Part shown: positions 34 through 11,070 of the stretch, piece after piece
How positions within the stretch are numbered: position 1 is the stretch's first letter
Layout: each line of letters opens with the position of its first letter
DNA from: a virus
Direction: 5' to 3' (one strand)
DNA length: 11,070 bases
UHGV virus genome: UHGV-0129235
Notes under the pieces: generated by a model
Database searches by the model: none
What the model saw: only the letters and a program-made list of their open reading frames with translations
Told to the model about the DNA's origin: nothing
Translations under genes and position numbers: made by a program

Positions 34-66
34 ATGGCTAAAGTTCTGGTGCTTTTACATAGCTAA
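34..66 (+). pseudogene. wrbA: Displaced native 5' end of wrbA (RBS + ATG + codons MAKVLVL) running into island DNA and stopping after 10 codons; left half of attB
   Basis: atg gct aaa gtt ctg gtg ctt (34-54) encodes MAKVLVL, which is the N-terminus of enterobacterial WrbA as I recall it; gaggag SD at 18-23; frame then reads LHS-stop in island sequence. The same codons resume at the right edge of the window. Confidence 0.55.
46..60. other. attL junction (host-island crossover region, shared core GTGCTTT at 49-55)
   Basis: ctggtgcttt|tacat: matches wrbA through GTGCTTT then diverges into island sequence; same 7-mer present at right junction 11016-11022. Confidence 0.5.
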
Positions 67-83
67 ACACGTACATTCAACTA

Positions 84-98
84 CCTGTTAATAACAGG
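84..98. repeat. Palindrome CCTGTTA-a-TAACAGG in attP-proximal left arm (candidate protein-binding site)
   Basis: 7-bp perfect inverted arms around a single central base, ~30 bp inside the attL crossover. Confidence 0.4.
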
Positions 99-435
99 AC
101 AATATCAGGTGAATCCCTATTCAATTTAAAGGCATTTCCCCAAGTATCTATGCAATCCTACACAGATTCTATGCAGTATCGGTATAGTCTCTTTTTAGTC
201 TAACTTATTGAAATATATAAAGAATCTGCGAAGTCTCTTTTCAGGGTAAACTGTATCGTGTTAGTCGTCCCTCTCTCGACTCCTAGAAAAGTGCTATATA
301 CAGGGCTATATAACGATATATAGATGTTTGGTCACCATACGTTACAGTTGCAAGAGATAACAATCAGCTATGTGAAAGTTAGGAAGTGATGGTTATAGTT
401 ACCCTCCTAAAATCTTCATAGCTCCTTCATAACCA

Positions 436-561
436 GTCTTAAAAGGACTTCCTTTTGAGACACTTTCAACGTAACGGTAGAATGCACCCTCAAGTAGTCT
501 CAAAAGGTTGTTTTTGGATTATGAGACAGCTAAACTTATGAGACTAACTTTTGAGACATCT
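436..561. promoter_or_regulatory. res-like recombinase binding-site cluster and probable autoregulated promoter upstream of the small serine recombinase
   Basis: 26-bp imperfect palindrome GTCTTAAAAGG-actt-CCTTTTGAGAC (436-461); third copy GTCTCAAAAGG (497-507); direct repeats TTATGAGAC (519-527, 536-544) and TTTTGAGACA (549-558); GTTTTTGGATTA (510-521) resembles the Hin/Gin-type half-site GGTTTTTGATAA; possible -35 ttgttt (508-513) / -10 taaact (530-535). Confidence 0.45.
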
Positions 562-572
562 AAGGGGGATGT

Positions 573-1121
573 ATGGCGGTGATTGGTTATTGCAGGGTAT
601 CAACACAAGACCAGACTGTAGACAACCAGAAACTACAGATAGAGAAGGTTCACAAGGTCGATAAATGGTTTATTGATGAGGCTGTCTCAGGAGCTACAAA
701 GGCCACCAGCAGAGATGGTTTTAGAGACATGATGAACTATGTAAGGTGTGACGATACGTTAGTTGTGGTAGCTATTGACCGTTTAGGGCGTAATACCGTT
801 GATGTGCTCTCTAACGTGGAGTCACTACAGACTAAAGGTGTGAGGGTTGTTTCTCTACGTGAAGGTTTTGACCTGTCTACACCAATCGGTAAAGCAATGC
901 TTACTATGATGGCTGGTTTAGCTGACCTTGAAAAAGACCTTATCAGTGAACGTAGAAAGGCTGGTATTGAACGTGCTAAAGCTGAAGGGGTTCACATGGG
1001 AAGACCTGTAAAAGCTTCTTCAGAGGCTGTACAGATGCTTATTTCACAAGGTAAAACGAGGTTGCAGATTCAGGAAGAGCTAGGAATCTCTAGAGCAACT
1101 TATTACAGACTTGCTAAATAA
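573..1121 (+). CDS. Small serine recombinase, resolvase/DNA-invertase family
   Basis: 182-aa ORF; N-terminal MAVIGYCRVSTQDQ catalytic-serine motif, DRLGR motif, C-terminal HTH (LGISRATYYRLAK); SD aaggggg 4 nt before ATG. Confidence 0.9.
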   Translation: MAVIGYCRVSTQDQTVDNQKLQIEKVHKVDKWFIDEAVSGATKATSRDGFRDMMNYVRCDDTLVVVAIDRLGRNTVDVLSNVESLQTKGVRVVSLREGFDLSTPIGKAMLTMMAGLADLEKDLISERRKAGIERAKAEGVHMGRPVKASSEAVQMLISQGKTRLQIQEELGISRATYYRLAK

Positions 1122-1805
1122 GTTACTGAATAGTTACATGGATGTGACTGATATTTGGCTTTTTTGCAAAGGGGGTCACATAGCTGGTGTGACGGGTACT
1201 TAGCAGCTACAGATTGATTGCAGATATTTTCGAAGATTATCGGGGAAGGGAAATGTAGAGGGGCTAGTCATTTTTTATAAAAAATTTAGAGGCTGGATAT
1301 TACCTGTATAGATTTTAACCAGTATAGAAGCCTGTATAACATGAGGGGTTCCTATGGTCACTATATCCCTCTTTCCCACTAAGGAAGCCTTAGCAGCACC
1401 TAGGCAACTATTGACTAAGGTCAACTTCATAAACTCAGAGTTAAGTTACCTTGAAAGATTCTACCAAGAAACTACACAGGTATTATTTAGTCTGACTGTG
1501 AAGAGATGTTTAACGGGAGGAAGAGAACCATGAAACCGAAGGTAGGTTCTATCTTAACAGTGACCGTAAGAAGAGAACTTGAGAGACAACTAAACAAACC
1601 TCTTAAGTAAAAGACAACACTCCAGAAAGAGTGTCTGTTTAACAGGCTTCTCAAAAGCTCTTAAGAAATCTGTTAAGTAGGGTCATGTGAACAATCTTAC
1701 CATTTTGTCAATGCTTTTGTCTTTGACCTAAATCAATAAAATGTATCGTTTGATGTGCTTTTAAACAAAATAGCTAAAGAATCTTTTTAGAGGGGCGCTT
1801 CGCTT

Positions 1806-2003
1806 GTGTCACATCCAATAATCAATGTCGGTCGTTATCATGGTGGTTCTGATGACTGGCGTACACCGTATCGTTTATTTCGTAACCTACACCGAGAATT
1901 TAGTTTCTCAATGGATGGTGCTGCAACTGAGCATGACGCATTGTTGCCACGGTTCACCGATGATATTCACAATCAATCATGGGTTGGTGAACGGGGTCTG
2001 TAA
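1806..2003 (+). pseudogene. N-terminal fragment of a phage Dam-type DNA N6-adenine methyltransferase (truncated remnant)
   Basis: 65-aa ORF with SDDWRTPYRLFRNLHREFSFSMDGAATEHDALLPRFTDDIHNQSWVGERG, matching the pattern D-x-W-x-TP...LF..L..EF.F..D.AA...NA....F...D.L.Q.W.G that I recall for phage Dam (Pfam Dam family); the expected downstream NPPYS catalytic region is absent in all frames. Confidence 0.4.
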
Positions 2004-2685
2004 AGATTGTTTAAGAAGTCGGTTTAGGGATTGGTAGATGATTCGGATGAAGCATCCTCATAACAATACCAATTAGAAGGTGGCTCTCCCTTTCTGGGGT
2101 TATCGCCTTGTATCTTAGTGAGTCCAGGAAGTTCTCTGTGAAGGGTCTTGTCAGTCCTTTATATTGGGTGATTACAACTTATTGAAAAATAAGAACTTTT
2201 AGAAGTTACTGTCAGATAGGTGAATACTTGATAGATACAGCTTTCTGGTTCTGTCAAGCTATTTTTTAATAGATAGCACAAAATGCTAAAGATACCCCTA
2301 TACCATCTCGTACAGGGGGTTTTGAAGGGAGTTTAACGGGGGTCTGTGTGGTTATCTGTTCTGGTCCTGTCCTTGAGGTCAAACGACCATTCACGACCAA
2401 ACAATCTGAACACGATAAACACTCTGACGATGAAATAGCGAAGTAATAAGCCTGCAATCAGCCCAACACCTCCACCAGCCCATACATCAGGTGACCCCAG
2501 CTCAGGAGGGAGATTTACCATTAAATTTCCTGTGTGCAATGCAATACCATGTGACATACATAGTTGATTCGGTTAGTTGGGCTTGTACCAACCCCTATCG
2601 AATAAACCTCATAGCCACGCCTTTATATTTTCCCTCTCTCATAAAACCATTATACCATAAATGTTAATAAAATGTTAAAAAATGC

Positions 2686-2714
2686 TTGACATTAGCCTTT
2701 GAAACTGCTAAGAT
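2686..2714 (+). promoter_or_regulatory. Sigma70-like promoter (TTGACA-17 bp-TAAGAT) for the four-gene operon
   Basis: Perfect -35 TTGACA at 2686-2691, 17-bp spacer, -10 TAAGAT at 2709-2714, followed by the motif ATTGTATATAT shared with the promoter at 4670. Confidence 0.5.
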
Positions 2715-2763
2715 TGTATATATAGTTAACAGGAAATTAACAATTACAAGGGCCAGCTTATGA

Positions 2764-3318
2764 ATGAACAACAAAGATTTTCAAAAATTTCTTGAAGAAT
2801 CCAAGAGACGCAACAGACACAACGGTTACAGCCACACAGACACCCCCACCAGCTACGAAGTCCCAACCTTTAGCAAATCCGAACGTAAGAACATTGAAGC
2901 GGTCATTCGTAGTATTACGCCACGAGACAGATTTATGCCAGCACGCAAAGAAAAAGAGAATACTTTAAAAACTTTCTTGATGGGCTTTGATTCTTACGAG
3001 CAATTACCGCCACGAATTGAAGATGTAATTATCGGTACTTGTCGCAGTTTTGGAAGGGATAACTATCACCGGAAAGTTTTCTATTTACTACGAAATCTTG
3101 ACAAAATTAGCTCAAGCACAGTAACAAATTATCTTCAGCGTCAAGCAACCAGGCTTAGCTATGAATTACCAAGCGATAAATATTGCGCTAACTTAGCCAC
3201 TATTTGCATGAAAGTTATTGAGACAATTAATCATCATGCGGAAGTGGGCAATATCAGCCTTACGATTAGTGAACCAGATTTCGAGTTTGACCCGTATTTA
3301 GTTACAGAGGAATTTTAA
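2764..3318 (+). CDS. Hypothetical protein (184 aa), first gene of four-gene operon
   Basis: Intact ORF directly downstream of promoter; abutted by next gene start (TAAATG); no family recognised. Confidence 0.6.
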   Translation: MNNKDFQKFLEESKRRNRHNGYSHTDTPTSYEVPTFSKSERKNIEAVIRSITPRDRFMPARKEKENTLKTFLMGFDSYEQLPPRIEDVIIGTCRSFGRDNYHRKVFYLLRNLDKISSSTVTNYLQRQATRLSYELPSDKYCANLATICMKVIETINHHAEVGNISLTISEPDFEFDPYLVTEEF

Positions 3319-3597
3319 ATGAATAAACACACATTAACCCGTATTTCAGAGGAAGCTTTTAACGGGCTTACCAGAATTAAACAAGCAACTAACTTACCTC
3401 ATCAAACTATTATGCAACTTGCAATTGCTAAAGAGGTCACTGAGTCGGATTTACTTAAATATCCAGTCTCTAAAGGTCGTAAGCACATCCGAATTAGTCA
3501 GGACGCTTTAGATACTTTGAAGGCACTTAACGGCTTTAAAATTGATATTGCCCGTCTATTGAGTCTTAAGATTCACAAGTTAGCGATGGAGGTTTAA
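3319..3597 (+). CDS. Hypothetical small protein (92 aa), possible DNA-binding regulator
   Basis: ORF with SD agagga 9 nt upstream; start abuts upstream stop; function not recognised (regulator assignment is a guess from size and a helix-like segment NLPHQTIMQLAIAKEV). Confidence 0.55.
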   Translation: MNKHTLTRISEEAFNGLTRIKQATNLPHQTIMQLAIAKEVTESDLLKYPVSKGRKHIRISQDALDTLKALNGFKIDIARLLSLKIHKLAMEV

Positions 3598-3812
3598 TGC
3601 TATGCGTTACCTTTGAATACCACACGGATAAAATGATTCGCCACATCTCCGACCTCCTGATTAAGGGAAACGGATTCGGTGACATCCATAACTCAAAAGA
3701 TATTTTCATTAAAGCCATTGGCCCAAATGAAGTACTGAAAACAGCAGTTAAACCGGAATGGTTTGAGCGTCACAAGATTGAATTAGGTTATTGGGGTGAG
3801 GAGGTTTTATGA
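3597..3812 (+). CDS. Hypothetical small protein (71 aa)
   Basis: SD ggagg 6 nt upstream; ATG overlaps upstream stop (TAATG), consistent with translational coupling. Confidence 0.55.
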   Translation: MLCVTFEYHTDKMIRHISDLLIKGNGFGDIHNSKDIFIKAIGPNEVLKTAVKPEWFERHKIELGYWGEEVL

Positions 3813-4096
3813 AACCTTGGCATGAAGATGTTAGACGATATTTTACAGAACACCTTATCTATGATGAATCCAGTGATTCCCTGTGCTGGTCTGATGGAGA
3901 GTCAGTCACGATAAATACCGACGACTACGGCAACAAAACATTTAATATAGGCCGATATACTTTCTACGTGAAATATGTTGTCTGGTTCCTTTATCATGGC
4001 TATCAATCCAACAAGCAAATTATCCATCGAAATGGTAACAGAGCCGATACCAGACCAAAAAATCTTATGCAAGTCCGAGACTTTAAGAGAAATTAG
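3809..4096 (+). CDS. HNH endonuclease-like small protein (95 aa)
   Basis: SD gaggagg 5 nt upstream; ATGA start/stop overlap; C-terminal YHGYQSNKQIIHRNGNRADTRPKNL resembles the HNH_3-type motif (hydrophobic-H-x-N-G-x-x-x-D-x-R-x-x-NL) of phage HNH nucleases. Confidence 0.5.
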   Translation: MKPWHEDVRRYFTEHLIYDESSDSLCWSDGESVTINTDDYGNKTFNIGRYTFYVKYVVWFLYHGYQSNKQIIHRNGNRADTRPKNLMQVRDFKRN

Positions 4097-4250
4097 AAAA
4101 ACAGCTTCTCAGACGCTCTCAATCGCATTCTAACGCAAAAAACTACCTTATTTTAGTGGGTAATACCACTGTACAGGCTACCCCTGAAAAAGACTGTTTA
4201 GCTCGTTACAGAGCGATTGAGGAGGTCTGGTAAAAAGGAGATTTTAAGAA

Positions 4251-4580
4251 ATGAGAGAATTAAACTTCCCACTACAGATTTTTATTGATACCGACACCGC
4301 CATGATGATTCAGGCTTTCGCTGATGTAGGTGTTAGCATTGACTTTGATAAGTTGTTAGAGTTAATGACTGATAATGCGGAAAGCATCTCTGACTTTATT
4401 CAGTCGGTGGAGTTTAACGAGCCTCGAATGATGCTACCAATTAAAGACAGCAACATGAAAAGATTGGTTATCGAGCAAACGAACAAATTCAGCGTTAGCC
4501 CTGAAAGATATCTCAAGGCAGCTATAGCAATTTTGTACGCTGACAATATTTTGGTGACGGATTCGAAGGTGGTGCATTAA
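4251..4580 (+). CDS. Hypothetical acidic protein (109 aa)
   Basis: ORF with SD aaggag 10 nt upstream; net acidic composition; no family recognised. Confidence 0.6.
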   Translation: MRELNFPLQIFIDTDTAMMIQAFADVGVSIDFDKLLELMTDNAESISDFIQSVEFNEPRMMLPIKDSNMKRLVIEQTNKFSVSPERYLKAAIAILYADNILVTDSKVVH

Positions 4581-4645
4581 TGGAATTGGTGATTATCTGT
4601 TTTGTATTGATTGGCATGATTGCAGGTGCATCTATTAAAGTATAA
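4580..4645 (+). CDS. Possible 21-aa hydrophobic single-TM peptide (MELVIICFVLIGMIAGASIKV), translationally coupled
   Basis: ATG overlaps stop of upstream gene (TAATG); almost entirely hydrophobic; too short for the ORF track; speculative. Confidence 0.25.
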   Translation: MELVIICFVLIGMIAGASIKV

Positions 4646-4669
4646 ATGTTACCAATCTGTTAAAAGCTG

Positions 4670-4698
4670 TTGACAAATAACCTTGAGCATGACATAAT
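4670..4698 (+). promoter_or_regulatory. Sigma70-like promoter (TTGACA-17 bp-CATAAT) sharing the ATTGTATATAT motif with promoter at 2686
   Basis: -35 TTGACA 4670-4675, 17-bp spacer, -10 CATAAT 4693-4698, immediately followed by TTGTATATAT. Confidence 0.5.
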
Positions 4699-4901
4699 TG
4701 TATATATGAGGATAGTCTTCTATCCGAAGTCTATAGGGAGAGCAATTCTCCTTGAATTAAAATATTAATCATCTCTACATCGATGATAACTATATTCTGA
4801 TTGGAAAGGTGCAATGCTTTTCGTCATGGCCTTTCAGTTCGGTCTGAGAGGTCATCTCGAAAAGTGCTTAATCATTCATTCATTGAACCCTTTACAGCTT
4901 T

Positions 4902-4930
4902 GCCCTAATCATGAGTTAGGGCTTTCTTTA
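4902..4930 (+). terminator. Terminator-like hairpin (GCCCTAA-7 nt loop-TTAGGGC + TTTCTTT)
   Basis: 7-bp perfect stem with U-rich tail; lies in the leader between promoter 4670 and gene 5145. Confidence 0.4.
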
Positions 4931-4998
4931 AGAGTTTTTAAACAGAGCTTTTAAAGAAAGTTTTTCCTGAAACTTCGTTAACGTTAAAGCAAACCTTC

Positions 4999-5034
4999 AA
5001 AGCCCTTCACAGATTATGTTTAGGGCTTTTTTCA
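4999..5034 (+). terminator. Terminator-like hairpin (AAGCCCT-15 nt loop-AGGGCTT + TTTTT)
   Basis: 7-8 bp stem followed by T-run; sequence-related to hairpin at 4902 (both contain TAGGGCTTT and a downstream AGCTTTTAAA). Confidence 0.45.
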
Positions 5035-5144
5035 GCTTTTAAAAAGCATACTTGGCAAACCACCTTTTAAGTCTCTTCTAAGTTTAGATAGGCTGTCAGG
5101 TGTGCTTTTTAAAAACTGAATATTACTTAGAAGAGGAAAATGAA

Positions 5145-5852
5145 ATGGAAAATCTATATATTAGCGGTAGAAAGGTTGATAGCTTCGGTGACTGGTCGCC
5201 ACAGACTGAACATCCAGCTATCACTATTCAGCGTAAAGAACACGATGAAAGAATTAAGCTTGAGCAATCGTTAAAGATGTCACCAAAGGTAATTTCCTTT
5301 GTGTCTCCTGAGCCTCAAGAAATGCCAGATATCTGCAAAAGTGAAGCACTATTTAATCTTGAGCGTGAATATTACCCACAGTTAAAAGCACAGCGTATTA
5401 AACTTGATGACGCTTACAGCAAAGTTACCCTGATGCAATCAGCTATTGAGCCGTCAGAATTTGAGATTCAGGATGAATTGTCACAGAAGCCGTATGTTTA
5501 CTTCACATACGAAGATAATGATGGTTTTGGTACTTTTCAAGAAAACGTCACAGACGTGATTAGTAGTCTTCCTGCTGGACATCGAATTGTGAAGATGGTT
5601 AAAGCTTCAAGAGGTGCTGGTCAGTTTATTTACATGACTAATAAGAGCGATGAAGAACTCTGTGAACTTGCCAGACAGAACATCTTGGCATCACGTAACA
5701 AGCAACTTGAAAATGTTAAGTTGTATCTCTCAAGAGAGCTTCAGGCTATGAAAGAGCTTGTGAAAGAATATGAAGATGCTAAGAAGATTGCTATGCAGGC
5801 TGATATTGAGCAGCTTACGAAGATTTCTCAGAAATATGCAAAGGCTATTTGA
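5145..5852 (+). CDS. Hypothetical protein (235 aa; C-terminal coiled-coil-like region)
   Basis: ORF; preferred start ATG 5145 (MENLYISG) with SD gaagagga upstream, rather than GTG 5100 of the ORF track; no family recognised. Confidence 0.6.
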   Translation: MENLYISGRKVDSFGDWSPQTEHPAITIQRKEHDERIKLEQSLKMSPKVISFVSPEPQEMPDICKSEALFNLEREYYPQLKAQRIKLDDAYSKVTLMQSAIEPSEFEIQDELSQKPYVYFTYEDNDGFGTFQENVTDVISSLPAGHRIVKMVKASRGAGQFIYMTNKSDEELCELARQNILASRNKQLENVKLYLSRELQAMKELVKEYEDAKKIAMQADIEQLTKISQKYAKAI

Positions 5853-5870
5853 TATGGTGTGAGGTGATGA

Positions 5871-6080
5871 ATGATTGAAGAACGTTTAGAGACTATTCGG
5901 TCTGTTTGTGAAAACTTAAAGTTACAAACTAAGCCAGCCTTAAGAATTAAAACCAAACATCAAATTATCACCTCACGCAAACCAAAAACACGCAAGATTC
6001 CAAAGTGGTGTATCGACCGTATCCCTTCCGATGCTCAAATTATAGGTGAAACGGAACTACATTATCTTGTCAGGCATTAA
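5871..6080 (+). CDS. Hypothetical small basic protein (69 aa)
   Basis: ORF with SD gaggtga just upstream; Lys/Arg-rich (RKPKTRKIPK); followed by terminator. Confidence 0.5.
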   Translation: MIEERLETIRSVCENLKLQTKPALRIKTKHQIITSRKPKTRKIPKWCIDRIPSDAQIIGETELHYLVRH

Positions 6081-6102
6081 AAAAGATTGGTTGGGTGAAT
6101 AC

Positions 6103-6142
6103 GGGGAGAGATTAACCTTAATTGGTTGGTCCTCCCCTTTTT
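6103..6142 (+). terminator. Rho-independent terminator candidate (GGGGAG...CTCCCC + TTTTT)
   Basis: GC-rich 6-bp stem with structured loop and 5-T tail, right after the 69-aa gene stop. Confidence 0.5.
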
Positions 6143-6177
6143 CGTATATGAACACTTAAAGAGGTGAAATATGAACA

Positions 6178-8355
6178 ATGGCACAGTTTAAAGTTGATAG
6201 TTTTATCGTTGAGCTAGGCTTCAGCGAGAACGTTATTAAGGGCTTGCAAAGAGTTGAAAAGGCAGCTTTGCAGTCAGCACAAAGAATTGAACGTAATTTG
6301 AATAGAGCGTTTAAGGTCGATACCAAGCAACTTGACAGCAATCTGACAAGTTCTTTAGGGCAACTTGAAAGGAAGTTTAATAAGACCTTTGACAAGATTG
6401 AACAGAGAGCAAGAAACACAAAAGTTTTCCGTTTCACAAGTCAGGTTAATGACGCTATTAATCCTCCAAAACAACCAAGACAGCCACGAATTAGCGGAAA
6501 CAGAGCAATCACAGCAGCTTATTCAGCGAATATGAGCAAGCTAAAAGGCTTTGACCCTATTTTGCAGAAATACATCAAATCTCAGTTTTACGGGCTATCT
6601 GCTAAAGCTGGGTCAATGGATAATTCAAAATTCAATGAGAAGCTGGCTCAGTTAAACACTTCAGTCAGAGAAGCAATTGCTAAAGCCAGAGGTCATACAT
6701 CCACCAGCATTAACAATACAAGCGACGCATTTAATAATCTTGCAAGCAATGCGATTAAATTATCTGGTGCATTTTACTCTGTGATGGGTGCTCTTAACGC
6801 TTACAAGGCCATTATGAATGCAGGTCTTAAACGAGATTCCGCACAGAGAGCCGCTAAGTTTGTACTTGGTGATAAAGCATCTGAGGCTGAAACATTTATC
6901 AGGGGACTGGCTGACAAGACAGGTCTTAATATCTCTGAAGGGCTATCAAGCTACGCTAAGTTTGCAGCAGGTGCTCAGGGTTCTATGTCACAGGAACAGA
7001 CACAGGAGCTATTTGGTAATGCAACGGCTATGAGTCGCTTAATGGGGCTTTCTAACGACGAGCTAAACGGCATTTTGAAAGCTTTTGAGCAGATGGCGAG
7101 CAAGGGCAAGATTCAGGCTGAAGAGCTTCGTGGTCAGTTAGGTGACCGTATGGCTGGTGCATTTAAACTATTCGCTGAAGCATTGGGTATGACTGCTACA
7201 GAGCTTGATAAAGCGATGAAAGACGGGAAGATTTTAAGTAGTGATACTCTCCCTAAAGTCGCTAAACAGATGGGCTTGATGATTGATAAAGCGGGTGGCT
7301 GGGCTGAAGTCGCTAAGAGCACTCAGACAGCTTTAGGGAAACTGGCTAACAACAGGGATGATACGATGGTGAAAATCTTCTCAGGTTCACAGGATGAGCT
7401 AAATGGCTTCTTATCCAGTCTGAGTAGCCTGCTTAGTGAAATGGGGATGAGTTCTTCTATCGCTGGTGATGCTATCGGTGGACTTATCGACATGCTTAAA
7501 GCTGGTGTAGATGATATTCGCGTATTCAATAACACCATGGAAGGCTGGATTTTACAGACTAAGAAGTTCTATTACAGCCTTGATGACACTAAACGAAAAC
7601 TACTTGATGAAGTCGGTGATGGTTTTATCAATTTTGTCAAAGGTCTTGCTATAGCGTTATCTGCAAAGACGCTATTCAGTGCTACTACAGGGGTTATGAA
7701 CCTGACAAGAGCAATCACAACGTTAGGTACAAGAGCTAATCAGGTGGCTGGTCAGGTAGCTACTGGTAAAGGTGGTGGAAAACTGAAAGGTGTAGCTGGT
7801 GGTGTAGGTAGTGCTCTTGCAATTGGTTATGCTGATGACGGTTATGAAACAGCGTTAGCATTAGCTTCAATGATTCCACAAATCAGAGGTGTCACTCTTG
7901 GTTTATATGCATTGAAGAAAGCACTGGATTTTATGAATCAGGAAGTAGTCAAAAACGCTAATATGCATCCATCTGGGGTAGGTGTGGGTAGTGACTTTAA
8001 TCCTGTGTATTCTGGTGACCCTAATAAACCGAATGTGATTAACGAAGGATGGAGTAGAATTTTTAGTTCAATGGGTGAATTGTTTAACAATGCCACAATG
8101 AATATTGCAAGATTCAATCATCCAGAATTGATTACCATGAAACAAGATGCATCATTAACGAGCACTGACATCCAAAATCTAAGAGATGAAATTAGTGCTT
8201 TGAGTAAACGTATTCAGGAGCCAGTGAAAGTTTCACTTGGTGGTGAAGTTGCCATTAAACCAGATGAAACCAGCTTTATGACCTTTAGCAGTAATATCTA
8301 CGACCAATATGCAGAAGCTACGTTATTAAGTTCATCATTCCCAGAAGATGATTGA
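6178..8355 (+). CDS. Tail tape measure protein-like (725 aa)
   Basis: Internal segment GLSNDELNGILKAFEQMASKGKIQAEELRGQLGDRMAGAFKLFAEALGMTATELDKAMKDGKILSSDTLPKVAKQMG matches the conserved tape-measure domain as I recall it; coiled-coil-rich N-terminal third; Gly-rich hydrophobic C-terminal segment; SD agaggtg 9 nt upstream. Confidence 0.75.
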   Translation: MAQFKVDSFIVELGFSENVIKGLQRVEKAALQSAQRIERNLNRAFKVDTKQLDSNLTSSLGQLERKFNKTFDKIEQRARNTKVFRFTSQVNDAINPPKQPRQPRISGNRAITAAYSANMSKLKGFDPILQKYIKSQFYGLSAKAGSMDNSKFNEKLAQLNTSVREAIAKARGHTSTSINNTSDAFNNLASNAIKLSGAFYSVMGALNAYKAIMNAGLKRDSAQRAAKFVLGDKASEAETFIRGLADKTGLNISEGLSSYAKFAAGAQGSMSQEQTQELFGNATAMSRLMGLSNDELNGILKAFEQMASKGKIQAEELRGQLGDRMAGAFKLFAEALGMTATELDKAMKDGKILSSDTLPKVAKQMGLMIDKAGGWAEVAKSTQTALGKLANNRDDTMVKIFSGSQDELNGFLSSLSSLLSEMGMSSSIAGDAIGGLIDMLKAGVDDIRVFNNTMEGWILQTKKFYYSLDDTKRKLLDEVGDGFINFVKGLAIALSAKTLFSATTGVMNLTRAITTLGTRANQVAGQVATGKGGGKLKGVAGGVGSALAIGYADDGYETALALASMIPQIRGVTLGLYALKKALDFMNQEVVKNANMHPSGVGVGSDFNPVYSGDPNKPNVINEGWSRIFSSMGELFNNATMNIARFNHPELITMKQDASLTSTDIQNLRDEISALSKRIQEPVKVSLGGEVAIKPDETSFMTFSSNIYDQYAEATLLSSSFPEDD

Positions 8356-8367
8356 TTTAACGGTGTT

Positions 8368-8493
8368 CTACGTGAATAAAGCAAAGTTAATACCCACACC
8401 AAAAATTATTTTTCACGTAGCTCACGCTTAACAGAGAAAATACTTATATATCAAAGGCTTGGTTAAAAATGATTAAAATACACTAAGCCTTTG
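8368..8493. repeat. Two perfect 9-bp inverted repeats with long spacers (CTACGTGAA/TTCACGTAG and CAAAGGCTT/AAGCCTTTG) in the intergenic region between the tape measure and the next gene
   Basis: 8368-8376 vs 8412-8420 and 8452-8460 vs 8485-8493; the second right arm ends 7 nt before the SD of the downstream gene. Confidence 0.4.
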
Positions 8494-8511
8494 AAATCAA
8501 AGGAGAATTTA

Positions 8512-9300
8512 ATGATTTACTCTAATCAGATTCGTTACAGTGGCAAAGATGGTATCTATTTCCACTTAAGAGATAATGTAGATGCCTTCTTAACCTTATC
8601 AGCTACTGAACAGATGGAGTTTGACAGCCCTATGCAGGTGACTACACAGAACATGCAATCAGGGCAAACCGTCACAGATAATGTGCAAAGAGCACCCAGA
8701 ACAATCACTATTAGTGGTGTCGTTGTAGTTGGTTATGAAGGAAGTTTATTACTAACTCGTCAGGGTCAATTAGTAGAAAACTTCATCGACACTCTGGAAA
8801 ACTGGCGTGACCAGAAGCAGATTATTTCGGTCATCTGTAAAGACGGTATCAAGATTGATGATTCCATTATTACGAGCTTTAAAGCCTCTAAAGATGTTAC
8901 TATCTCTAACGGTCTTCGTATCCAGCTAACTTTTCAGGAAATTAACTTTAAAGCTATTGTTGGTCAGACTGATATTTCTGCTGCGACTGGAAAGGCCGCT
9001 ACTACAAATGACGGTGGTGTGACCAGTAAGAAGAATGCAGGTAACGTGACCACTGAACGCAATAACGCGCCTATGCTATCGTGCAAAGAGCTAATGAGTA
9101 TTAACGATGTATCCGGTTACGCTCCAGCTATCAGAAATGATATTCTCGATGCTCAGATTAAATGCAATAAGGCTTGGAAGCTGGACTATTCAGACTTAAC
9201 AGAAGCTGAAAAAACCAACGTCACCAATGCTAACAGTAACGCTGGTCGGGTAGCTTCAAAGCTTAAAAAGTACTCAGTGAACCCTCACAAAAAATACTAA
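8512..9300 (+). CDS. Hypothetical protein (262 aa), possibly a minor/distal tail protein
   Basis: ORF with SD aaggag 6 nt before ATG 8512 (preferred over TTG 8491); position immediately after the tape measure and a weak pattern resemblance to small minor-tail proteins; function low confidence. Confidence 0.55.
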
Positions 9301-10940
9301 GCGTCCACCTCTTCCATATCACCAGCAGGATAAATCCTTGTTACTGGTTCACCAAAAATAAGCATATCATCTAATGACTGCATCTCATCGGTTGCTTCTT
9401 CAAGCGTTAAGGTGTGGTCATCTTTACCATCAAGAGGAAAACCACGAATCATATTTCCATTGTGAAGATATATATCCACCAGCTTTTCATTACCAGAAAC
9501 AACAATCTCTTTCACCAGACGCTTAATAATAATCTGGGCTTCAGTTCTCCCCTCTACAGACTCCATATCAAGACCGCTTAAATCCAAGCTTGATACAGAT
9601 TTTACCCTCGCCTTTTCTCGTGATAACTGAACTATCAGTTCATCTTTTTCTTCCTGTTTAACCCGTAGTGCTTCTTGAATCTGAGTGATGTTAGGAAGCT
9701 GTATCAGCGTCTCAGTGAGTTTTTCCAGTTCACTATCAACGGTGTTTAGTCTGCGTTGCAGTTCATCTAATTTAGCTGTATCGGTTGCTTCATCGTGTAG
9801 CTGTGACAGTTTGCTGAACAGACGACTACAAAGCTGTGTATCAAGTAACTTTCTGGACACTGTACCGTAACTACAACGGGATTCTTTATTACCATTGCAA
9901 CGGTAAGTACCTTGATAAACGGGTTTACGTATCCCTGTAGGAGTCATTACAAGCCCACACTTACAACGGATAAGCCCCTTCAGTATGTTCACATATAGCC
10001 AGTGTTCACCGCTGGATGTTTTCCCCTTCCCTGTTTCCTCTAACAGTTGCTGTACAGCGTAAAACTTAGAGTCTGTGACAATCTGAGGATAGAACCCTTC
10101 AATTTCTTCACGTAACACTGTTTTACGGTCTTCTGTAGAAATCTTAGCGGGAAGGTAACCTAATACACTTCGTGAAGTCAGGATGTGTTTAACGCTTAAT
10201 GCTGACCAGTTGCCATCCGGTTTCTTAGTCTTGGATATTCTGACCTTACGCTGATTAATGGTCGGGTAACCTTGTTCGTTTAGCCATTTACAGATAGCAA
10301 ACATCGACATACCAGAAAGACGCTTGTCATAGATGATATTCACCAGTGACGCTTTATCTTCATCAACGATGTAGTGTGAACCGTCTTCTGATAGCTCTAA
10401 CCATCCGGGGGCTTGCTTACCCATAGGCTTCTTAAGTTCTCTTGCAAGCTGTGTTTTATGGTTCCAGACCTGAGCTATACGCTTTTGCTTAACAAGAGAT
10501 TCTTGGTGTGCTCTCTCAGCTATGATGATGTGCTTAATCAACTTCACAGGGTCTGTTAATGCTGATTTGTCGTAGAGTTCACCATCTCCCAGAGTCAGTA
10601 TAGAGACTCCTTTCCTCAGTATCTGCCTGACATCATCTATAGCTGTGTCGATATCAGCCCTACTGAAGCGGTCAAAGTTCTCTACAACAATCAGGGAACC
10701 TTCTGGAATAGCCCCAGACATAACATTTTCAAACATACGTCTGAAGTCAGAACCTTGAGCCTTATGTTGCTGGTGAAAACCAGATTTACCCTTATCAACG
10801 TATCTGTGAGCAGGAAGAAGGTAATAATCGTTTTTGTGCTTAGAGTAGAAAGCATCAATGAGGTTTGTTTGCCGTCTTAAGGAGTCTCCTGAGTCTTGCT
10901 CTTTAGTACTCCACCTGATGTATGTCACTAGCAGCTTCAT
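9297..10940 (-). CDS. Large serine recombinase (integrase)
   Basis: 547-aa ORF; N-terminal resolvase-type catalytic domain ([14 protein letters not shown]), extended recombinase domain, Cys cluster CKCG...CNGNKESRC consistent with a zinc ribbon, coiled-coil segment; start lies 51 bp from the hybrid wrbA start at the island edge. Confidence 0.92.
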
Positions 10941-10991
10941 ATCTTCGGACTATGCTTATCTAAGTGGTTCATTGAACAGGAGAACAATGAT

Positions 10992-11070
10992 ATGAGTGTT
11001 AAGGCAAGAATACTAGTGCTTTATTATTCCATGTACGGACATATTGAAACGATGGCACGCGCAGTCGCTG
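10992..11070 (+). CDS. wrbA: WrbA NAD(P)H:quinone oxidoreductase, island-regenerated hybrid 5' end (partial, runs off window)
   Basis: [26 protein letters not shown]; from LVLYYS onward this equals the WrbA N-terminus as I recall it; SD aggag 10 nt upstream is supplied by the island. Confidence 0.85.
11013..11027. other. attR junction (island-host crossover region, shared core GTGCTTT at 11016-11022)
   Basis: ctagtgctttattat: island sequence up to the core, then wrbA codons YYSMYGH continue. Confidence 0.5.

Follow-up and report, generated by a model that had tools for sequence, protein, structure and literature searches.

The small serine recombinase gene at positions 573-1121 (plus strand) of the DNA analyzed here is directly preceded by a set of short repeats, which raises the question of whether these form the recombination site of the encoded protein and what such a site would be used for. 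The window, as we call the whole stretch of 11,070 nucleotides, is an E. coli island of ~11 kb (~55-11021) inserted after codon 7 of wrbA, the first codons of which lie at 34-54. The island junctions at 34-58 and 10992-11021 share the core GTGCTTT. At the left junction, the wrbA promoter and codons 1-7 are followed by a stop, and the right end gives a new start and N-terminus that leave wrbA open. The island genes comprise that of the small serine recombinase and those of an HNH nuclease, a tape-measure protein, a Dit-like baseplate protein, and a large serine integrase (9297-10940, minus strand), the last of which abuts the right island end. The integration sites of sister islands are yecE, tonB-yciI, and mdtG. 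On the comparative evidence described below, we consider it probable and well supported that 436-557 represents the res site of the recombinase, with a likely role in resolving multimers of the island.

Half-sites and promoter candidates upstream of the recombinase gene

The repeats upstream of the recombinase gene are real, conserved, and not due to chance. Six half-sites of 12 bp, arranged in three pairs, were found between 436 and 557, and all six share the consensus GTCTCAAAA (in summary form GTCTCAAAA+3). In plus-strand orientation, the 12-bp half-site GTCTCAAAAGGA occupies 436-447 and 497-508; the other four copies (450-461, 516-527, 533-544, and 546-557) lie on the minus strand. Five of these, starting at 436, 450 (minus), 497, 533 (minus), and 546 (minus), were returned by a 12-mer search with up to three mismatches; the half-site at 516-527 (minus), which reads GTCTCATAATCC and has four mismatches to the 12-mer, was placed by reading the sequence and by a 9-mer scan at one mismatch. 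All other half-site-like matches of the 12-mer search in the window were isolated and at chance level. A stretch of 125 bp holds five copies of the hexamer GTCTCA/TGAGAC; when the window was simulated 400 times with a Markov-1 model, the maximum was one copy in 287 cases, two in 105, and three in only 5. The three pairs follow the order I-II-III-gene with a layout of 26-35-31-5-25 bp (122 bp in total), and the recombinase ATG lies 15 bp past the last half-site.

Site I (436-461, GTCTTAAAAGGACTTCCTTTTGAGAC) is the predicted crossover site. The preliminary description had listed it as a 26-bp imperfect palindrome, which is indeed present and is better parsed as 12-2-12, with the arms GTCTTAAAAGGA (436-447, plus) and, on the reverse strand, GTCTCAAAAGGA (450-461, minus) being complementary at 11 of 12 positions. 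The dinucleotide CT at 448-449 forms the exact centre, and from the mechanism of serine recombinases it would be the point of staggered cleavage and strand exchange (PMC2428073). Site I is separated by a 35-bp spacer (462-496), constant in length within 1 bp across relatives, from site II (497-527), a putative accessory site of 31 bp with inverted 12-7-12 half-sites (497-508, plus; 516-527, minus). The centres of sites I and II are 63.5 bp apart, i.e., ~6 helical turns. A third copy of the half-site had been reported at 497-507, where the sequence reads GTCTCAAAAGG. Site III (533-557, minus strand), likewise a putative accessory site, spans 25 bp and consists of head-to-tail half-sites (533-544 and 546-557) 13 bp apart; its centre is 33 bp from that of site II.

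Three further direct repeats had been described with the motif (T/A)TTGAGAC and a last copy ending at 558. All three exist. Two read TTATGAGAC (519-527 and 536-544) and the third reads TTTTGAGAC (549-557), which corrects the motif to T(A/T)TGAGAC and the end of the last copy to 557. The sequence GTTTTTGGATTA at 510-521, which had been likened to a Hin/Gin half-site, is present too, but it consists of the spacer of site II together with the inner portion of half-site II-R. Its counterpart in relatives is GATTTTTAGTTT or GATCTTTAATTT, and the conserved part is TTG, the -35 of the family promoter described below. Judged from these alignments, the resemblance of GTTTTTGGATTA to Hin/Gin sites is incidental, and the genuine likeness to hix/gix is found in site I with its 26 bp, 12-2-12 arrangement, and TC-AAAA core.

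A promoter candidate conserved in the family lies at 508-536 (plus strand), with a -35 region TTGTTT (508-513), a spacing of 17 bp, and a -10 region TAAACT (531-536). In the window TTGTTT-17-TAAACT is weak and below the threshold of the promoter scan, but the scan found the equivalent TTGATT/TTGATC-17-TATTAT in two relatives (L003 and L009), and TTG (508-510) and TAnnnT (531-536) are invariant alignment columns. This promoter is located in the site II spacer and half-site III-L, in agreement with the earlier proposal that the repeats overlap the likely promoter. A second candidate, TTGAGA-17-TAGAAT at 455-483 (plus strand, 10/12 matches), has its -35 region inside half-site I-R; it is found in this lineage and is not conserved in the L003-type clade. 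A Shine-Dalgarno sequence, AAGGGGG (562-568, plus strand), precedes the ATG by 4 nt. Because bound recombinase would overlap its own promoter with either candidate, autoregulation of the recombinase gene is a reasonable inference.

Conservation of the cluster and its linkage to the recombinase gene

A scan with one genome per species yielded 16 relatives from 13 genera of Enterobacterales with 64-99% protein identity. Fifteen of the 16 have the same arrangement upstream of the gene; the exception, L014, has lost sites I and II to an inserted element. In this relative, Pantoea dispersa, the two sites are replaced at 5800-5965 by unrelated sequence resembling an inserted mobile element. An alignment of the window with the 15 other relatives (16 sequences) contained a single 1-bp indel over sites I-III, located in the I-II spacer. 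The information content was 1.4-1.8 bits in half-site columns (1.83 bits for II-L, 1.38 for II-R, and 1.52 and 1.66 for the two site III copies) compared to 0.54 bits in the upstream flank and 0.88 bits in the I-II spacer, which exists as three unrelated sequence types of the same length within 1 bp. The central dinucleotide of site I varies by clade (CT, AG, or TC) and reaches 0.45 bits versus 1.6 bits for the site I arms. Site I is identical at 26/26 positions in Mangrovibacter, Biostraticola, and E. albertii despite unrelated flanks, and none of the 16 aligned sequences departs from the shared orientation of the two site III copies. The res-like cluster of several subsites that had been proposed for the adjacent recombinase is thus borne out as six conserved half-sites in the order I-II-III-gene with an embedded promoter candidate, an organization known from classical res sites (PMC9943657, PMC7157771, PMC12217951). 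Homologues at 59-60% identity have a 26-bp 12-2-12 palindrome at the distal position and accessory sites that are rearranged or different; in one of them (L026, 60%), the proximal site looks inverted, unlike the head-to-tail site III. No clear repeat pattern was found for the homologue on an Oceanisphaera plasmid (L023). On an E. coli plasmid (L022, 3835-3900), an end of the Tn3-family transposon TnAs1 lies in the I-II spacer, 24 bp upstream of site II, which recalls the res-site hunting discussed for SGI1.

The repeats and the gene occur together. In L009-L016 and L021-L029, the recombinase gene is all that is common with the window, and the repeat cluster precedes the gene in each; these islands bear tyrosine integrases, AIPR, Eco29kI or type I restriction(-modification) genes, or a capsid gene. 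Conversely, the sister islands L019 and L020 at yecE have kept all other island genes but lack both the recombinase gene and the repeat cluster, 441 unrelated bp replacing ~429-1218 of the window. As gene and repeats are absent together from these islands, we conclude that they form a cassette of ~790 bp (approximately 429-1218, plus strand). In distant E. coli variants, DNA homology starts at 430-432. Sequence comparison indicates that the repeats and the cassette are found in many kinds of integrative island. L021, a plasmid match with 70% identity, had been considered as a pointer to plasmid maintenance; it looks like a chromosomal island near sodB and therefore provides no evidence for such a role.

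A natural mosaic links the sites to the DNA-binding domain of the protein. In two E. coli islands at the yciI site (L035 and L036), the res DNA at 370-557 is 96-100% identical to the window and the C-terminal part of the protein, which begins at residue ~127 and comprises the end of helix E, the arm, and the HTH, differs in one residue, but the catalytic-domain DNA is only 64-69% identical (558-950 of the window compared). With 85-100% identity of the res DNA and the region coding for the DNA-binding domain, this represents a domain swap within one species, and it follows that DNA-binding domain and sites have been kept together. In a 52% homologue from an E. coli plasmid, the half-sites are AGCTCAAA and the recognition helix is ISPASVKRA, compared to GTCTCAAA and ISRATYYRL in the window, suggesting that the specificities of half-site and recognition helix change together.

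These data bear on the idea that the repeats bind a different protein, such as an island repressor, a replication initiator, or a host factor, or have arisen by chance. Other repeat families do occur nearby (CCTGTATAG at 296-304 and 1303-1339, AGTCTCTTTT at 187 and 233). However, across its unrelated contexts the cluster was found only together with the recombinase gene, is missing from loci that lack the gene, and co-varies with the HTH, and chance is excluded by the Markov-1 simulations together with the conservation. We therefore regard this explanation as extremely unlikely.

Three CCTGTATAG-like repeats at 1303-1339, 16 and 12 bp apart, lie just downstream of the cassette and an inverted copy (296-304) lies upstream; the window contains eight CCTGTATAG-like matches versus 2.1 expected, and the L019 segment that replaces the cassette also holds CTATACAG motifs. 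They may act as island operators or iterons, the cassette being placed within this region. AGTCTCTTTT is found within a direct repeat of 34 nt (170-203 and 216-249, 71% identity) that probably does not belong to res, because islands without the recombinase keep that DNA too.

The sharp boundaries of the cassette and its presence in unrelated islands could mean that site I serves mainly for intermolecular exchange, either shuffling modules between res-carrying elements or moving the cassette itself. Such a function would fit E. coli E110019 (L038), in which identity to the window rises from 71% (409-449, 12 mismatches in 41 bp) to ~99% (450-900, 4 in 451) at the centre of site I, a breakpoint resembling the res-site mosaics of Tn3-family transposons (PMC7157771). 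However, the central dinucleotides differ (CT versus AG), so a single exchange would not give this mosaic, and other variants break elsewhere (L002 near 396, L035 at ~558, and none at site I in L036); for these two reasons the L038 breakpoint is a weak hint only. In addition, homologous recombination in a conserved patch explains the mosaics equally well, and accessory sites normally suppress intermolecular events (PMC9943657). We thus consider an exchange function unlikely. The boundary of the cassette in L019 was also inspected as possible evidence for site-specific exchange at the centre of site I and was rejected: the BLAST match ends at 446, but homology judged by eye ends at ~428, and the TTAAAA match is fortuitous. 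A palindromic element of ~45 bp (TTGATTCGGTTAGTTGGGCTTGTACCAACCCCTA...) at 2564-2615 of the window is also present in E. albertii (L002, about 5800-5850) and in L038, ~20 bp upstream of site I and with a CATAG duplication on its flanks; it resembles a small repeat that is mobile or recombinogenic.

Resolvase and invertase features of the protein and its sites

The recombinase has 182 aa, with a catalytic domain followed by a C-terminal HTH (Pfam Resolvase, 9e-42, plus HTH_7). Its PDB matches were Gin (8e-23, 84 bits), gamma-delta resolvase (3e-21, 79 bits), Tn3 (75 bits), and Sin (58 bits), and protein identity is ~31% to Tn3/gamma-delta and about 35-40% to the Hin/Gin invertases. Overall similarity, with the Gin match as high as those of resolvases, cannot separate the two classes and was discarded as a criterion. 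The best NCBIfam match (Mpi invertase) was far below its cutoff. A protein search gave 989 homologues at E <= 1e-20; the best 120 of these belong to Enterobacterales and some Neisseriales and some Neisseriales" aside, all carry automatic names such as "recombinase family protein," "Pin-like invertase," or "multiple promoter invertase."

The best PDB and PHROG matches bear the name "DNA invertase," and site I has the 26-bp length, 12-2-12 arrangement, asymmetric centre, and xTxTCAAAA half-site core of hix/gix. It might therefore be supposed that 436-461 recombines with an inverted partner and flips a DNA segment. We consider such a switch very unlikely. The preliminary description had seen no second inverted copy in the window and on this basis favored a resolvase over an invertase; both statements hold. 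No second crossover site was found when the window, its 8-kb flanks in the genome (L001), and 5-10 kb (less where contigs end) in ~30 related loci were searched, so that the only half-site cluster in any locus sits upstream of the gene, with one res copy per island and no invertible segment. All complete genomes examined were colinear. The two putative accessory recombinase sites adjoining site I are a hallmark of res and are absent from hix/gix systems, which use a remote Fis enhancer instead (PMC4513852). In helix E the family has the invariant sequence GKAMLTM (GKAMLTMM in the window), which is like gamma-delta GKMVVTIL and unlike Gin GRFFFHVM: the FFFH motif of invertases, which includes the Phe105 switch and His107 (PMC4513852), is replaced by AMLT. 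A genuine Pin-type invertase gene is present in strain 730V1 (L039, 15385-18357). It adjoins tail-fibre genes in opposite orientation within a lambdoid prophage, at a distance of 1.2 kb from the island's res-recombinase cassette, and illustrates the contrast between invertase and resolvase layouts.

The regulatory (R) interface of the protein was compared with those of characterized resolvases. The Sin sequence used agreed with all residue numbers named in PMC2428073. The invariant residues Y56, R58, and D61 align with F52, R54, and D57 of Sin and with K54, E56, and D59 of gamma-delta (PMC2764113). This alignment suggests a regulatory patch of the resolvase type, but the argument is only suggestive, since the same patch matters in Hin (PMC9943657). 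A segment of 12 residues (~154-165) that contributes to the CTD synapsis interface of Sin (V163/I164 region) is missing in the alignment.

The overlap of sites II and III with the conserved promoter is equally what would be expected if the protein had been domesticated as an autorepressor or regulator, with the repeats as its operators and recombination lost or irrelevant. The single site per island is compatible with this, as is the lack of observed multimers: a search with an artificial attP junction detected tandem arrays in 0 of 527 E. coli genomes with island ends, a result that is neutral for a role in multimer resolution. Against an operator-only function, the catalytic residues R8, S10, D69, R70, R73, and E120 are all invariant in the family at 52-99% identity, and a perfectly placed 12-2-12 site of the crossover type has been conserved at a distance of 60 bp upstream from the promoter, a position in which repression does not need it. 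We therefore judge it improbable that the cluster acts as an operator only.

From its sequence features the system would belong with the tripartite res/resolvases, its accessory sites having an unusual geometry. We do not file it as a strict member of the Tn3 or the Sin subfamily, because site III is head-to-tail, Sin combines just two recombinase sites with HU, and the protein here lacks the segment that Sin uses for CTD synapsis. In its logic it appears closest to the Tn3/gamma-delta system and the resolution system of the island SGI1.

The res of Tn3/gamma-delta consists of three inverted sites of 28, 34, and 25 bp, compared to 26, 31, and 25 bp here with a head-to-tail site III. The I-II spacing is an integral number of helical turns in both systems but one turn longer here (63.5 versus 53 bp), the II-III distance is 33 versus 34 bp, and the outer half-site motif (T/A)GTCTC resembles TGTCYG. 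Features that appear common to both are a small serine recombinase carrying an HTH at its C terminus, three dimer sites in the order I-II-III-gene, an expected crossover in the distal site I, and a promoter inside res, which here is a candidate. They differ in the centre of site I, which is CT here (AG or TC in other clades) and AT in Tn3/gamma-delta, in the R interface, which is of the Sin type (Y/R/D) rather than R2/R32/K54/E56, and in their carriers, integrative islands here and a replicative transposon there. In the 114-bp res of Tn3/gamma-delta, site III adjoins tnpR, strands cross over at site I, and res contains promoters (PMC9943657, PMC7157771).

The res of SGI1 has a layout of 28-22-30-2-25 bp with the centre AC, a I-II centre distance of 51 bp, and a promoter overlapping boxII (PMC12217951). 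When restored, it resolved plasmid cointegrates at close to 100% and removed tandem island arrays ~1000-fold faster than homologous recombination, with transfer unaffected (PMC12217951). This system (Res/S027, restored res; PMC12217951) and ours have in common an integrative island as carrier, a tripartite res with boxIII adjoining the gene, a promoter (a candidate here) overlapping site II, and a central dinucleotide other than AT. SGI1 differs in being an IncC-mobilised island with a tyrosine integrase, in its half-site sequences, in that all its boxes are treated as inverted, and in the I-II distance (51 bp versus 63.5 bp here). Removal of island multimers was demonstrated for SGI1 and is proposed here by analogy.

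Head-to-tail half-sites have so far been the signature of site II of Sin (PMC2428073), and an accessory site of this type is shared with Sin/resH and with six of the beta recombinase. The F52-x-R54-x-x-D57 motif is shared as well, NFVRMGD in Sin corresponding to NYVRCDD/NYVREGD here (PMC2428073, PMC2764113). However, Sin uses two recombinase sites plus an HU/IHF site within 86 bp, whereas three predicted recombinase sites occupy 122 bp here, and the Sin CTD synapsis segment is absent. No IHF consensus was recognized by eye in the three types of I-II spacer, and a third predicted recombinase site (II) occupies the region.

A predicted res site on an integrative island

Taken as a res site, the cluster would work as follows. 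Three recombinase dimers would bind the six GTCTCAAAA-type half-sites, using the helix-turn-helix domains at the C terminus of the protein. At site I (436-461), the bound dimer would cut and exchange strands at the central CT, while the dimers at site II (497-527) and site III (533-557) would be accessory and form an interwound synapse with a second copy of res. We infer that this synapse would act as a topology filter that restricts recombination to direct repeats of res within a single DNA molecule, so that the product is a deletion (resolution) rather than an inversion or a fusion. The same binding should repress the gene, as sites II and III cover the conserved promoter candidate. For the 11-kb wrbA island, this would mean that head-to-tail multimers are reduced to single copies; the natural substrate might be tandem chromosomal arrays from repeated integration or multimeric circles formed after excision.

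By analogy with SGI1, removal of island multimers is the most economical reading of the role. It had been argued in addition that a res site implies a circular, probably replicating form of the island. This does not follow, since the substrates demonstrated for SGI1 are tandem chromosomal arrays (PMC12217951) and no replication gene was recognized among the annotated genes of the island. Against the res-resolvase reading, the sister islands L019 and L020 do without the cassette, and the layout fits neither characterized archetype, with a site I of 26 bp whose centre is asymmetric, a 31-bp site II, and head-to-tail half-sites in site III. A more far-reaching idea, which we regard as speculative and improbable, is that the cassette stands, in evolution as in mechanism, between the two characterized resolvase designs and serves an undescribed family of ~11-kb Enterobacterales islands that have a large serine integrase and homologues of two consecutive Felixounavirus tail genes. 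As part of this idea, if such islands were phage satellites that travel as head-to-tail multimers inside large helper capsids, the resolvase would convert the concatemer, once injected or replicated, into unit circles able to integrate. The features that would suggest the intermediate position are a Tn3-like tripartite res, a Sin-like head-to-tail site next to the promoter, and an R interface of the Sin type in the absence of the Sin CTD interface. Our literature searches returned no description of this island type or res family, but a tripartite res with a head-to-tail subsite may already have been described.

Several other features of the island were noted. The tape-measure gene (6178-8355) is homologous to a Felixounavirus tail gene, and the Dit-like baseplate protein (8491-9300) corresponds to the next consecutive tail gene of these phages. 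Compared with phage garuso (L030), identity is 35% over 500 aa for the tape measure and 71% for the baseplate/Dit-like protein encoded downstream, and positions 8536-9045 show ~92% DNA identity to some 200 FelixO1-like virulent phages. Capsid, terminase, and replication genes are absent. The island could be a satellite of FelixO1-like phages or a tail-assembly decoy against them. IMG/VR contigs with the recombinase gene were set aside as evidence of packaging, being prophage-region predictions. In a phage tblastn search, ORF 5100-5852 had no match and 2764-3318 had one weak partial match. Upstream of ORF 5100-5852, a 31-bp sequence (4999-5029) perfectly matches L019 on the opposite strand, which implies a conserved perfect palindrome or an inverted element. 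The 1.6 kb at 1122-2763 contain no convincing gene, and 1806-2003 hold the remnant of a gene for a DNA N6-adenine methyltransferase, of which the sister islands L035, L036, and L039 have an intact copy in this place. Rfam and PADLOC returned nothing in the window.

In other respects the cassette would represent ordinary biology, i.e., an uncharacterized member of a known system whose specialist interest comes from its hybrid geometry. The site map is concrete and testable and applies to a widespread, uncharacterized resolvase family. It extends SGI1, the single experimental precedent for island res systems, and suggests that res-resolvase cassettes are common accessories of integrative islands and not only of transposons and plasmids. 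The unusual subsite geometry, together with the natural swap of the catalytic domain, could help studies of synaptosome architecture, and the defined 26-bp site could help the search for orthogonal small serine recombinases.
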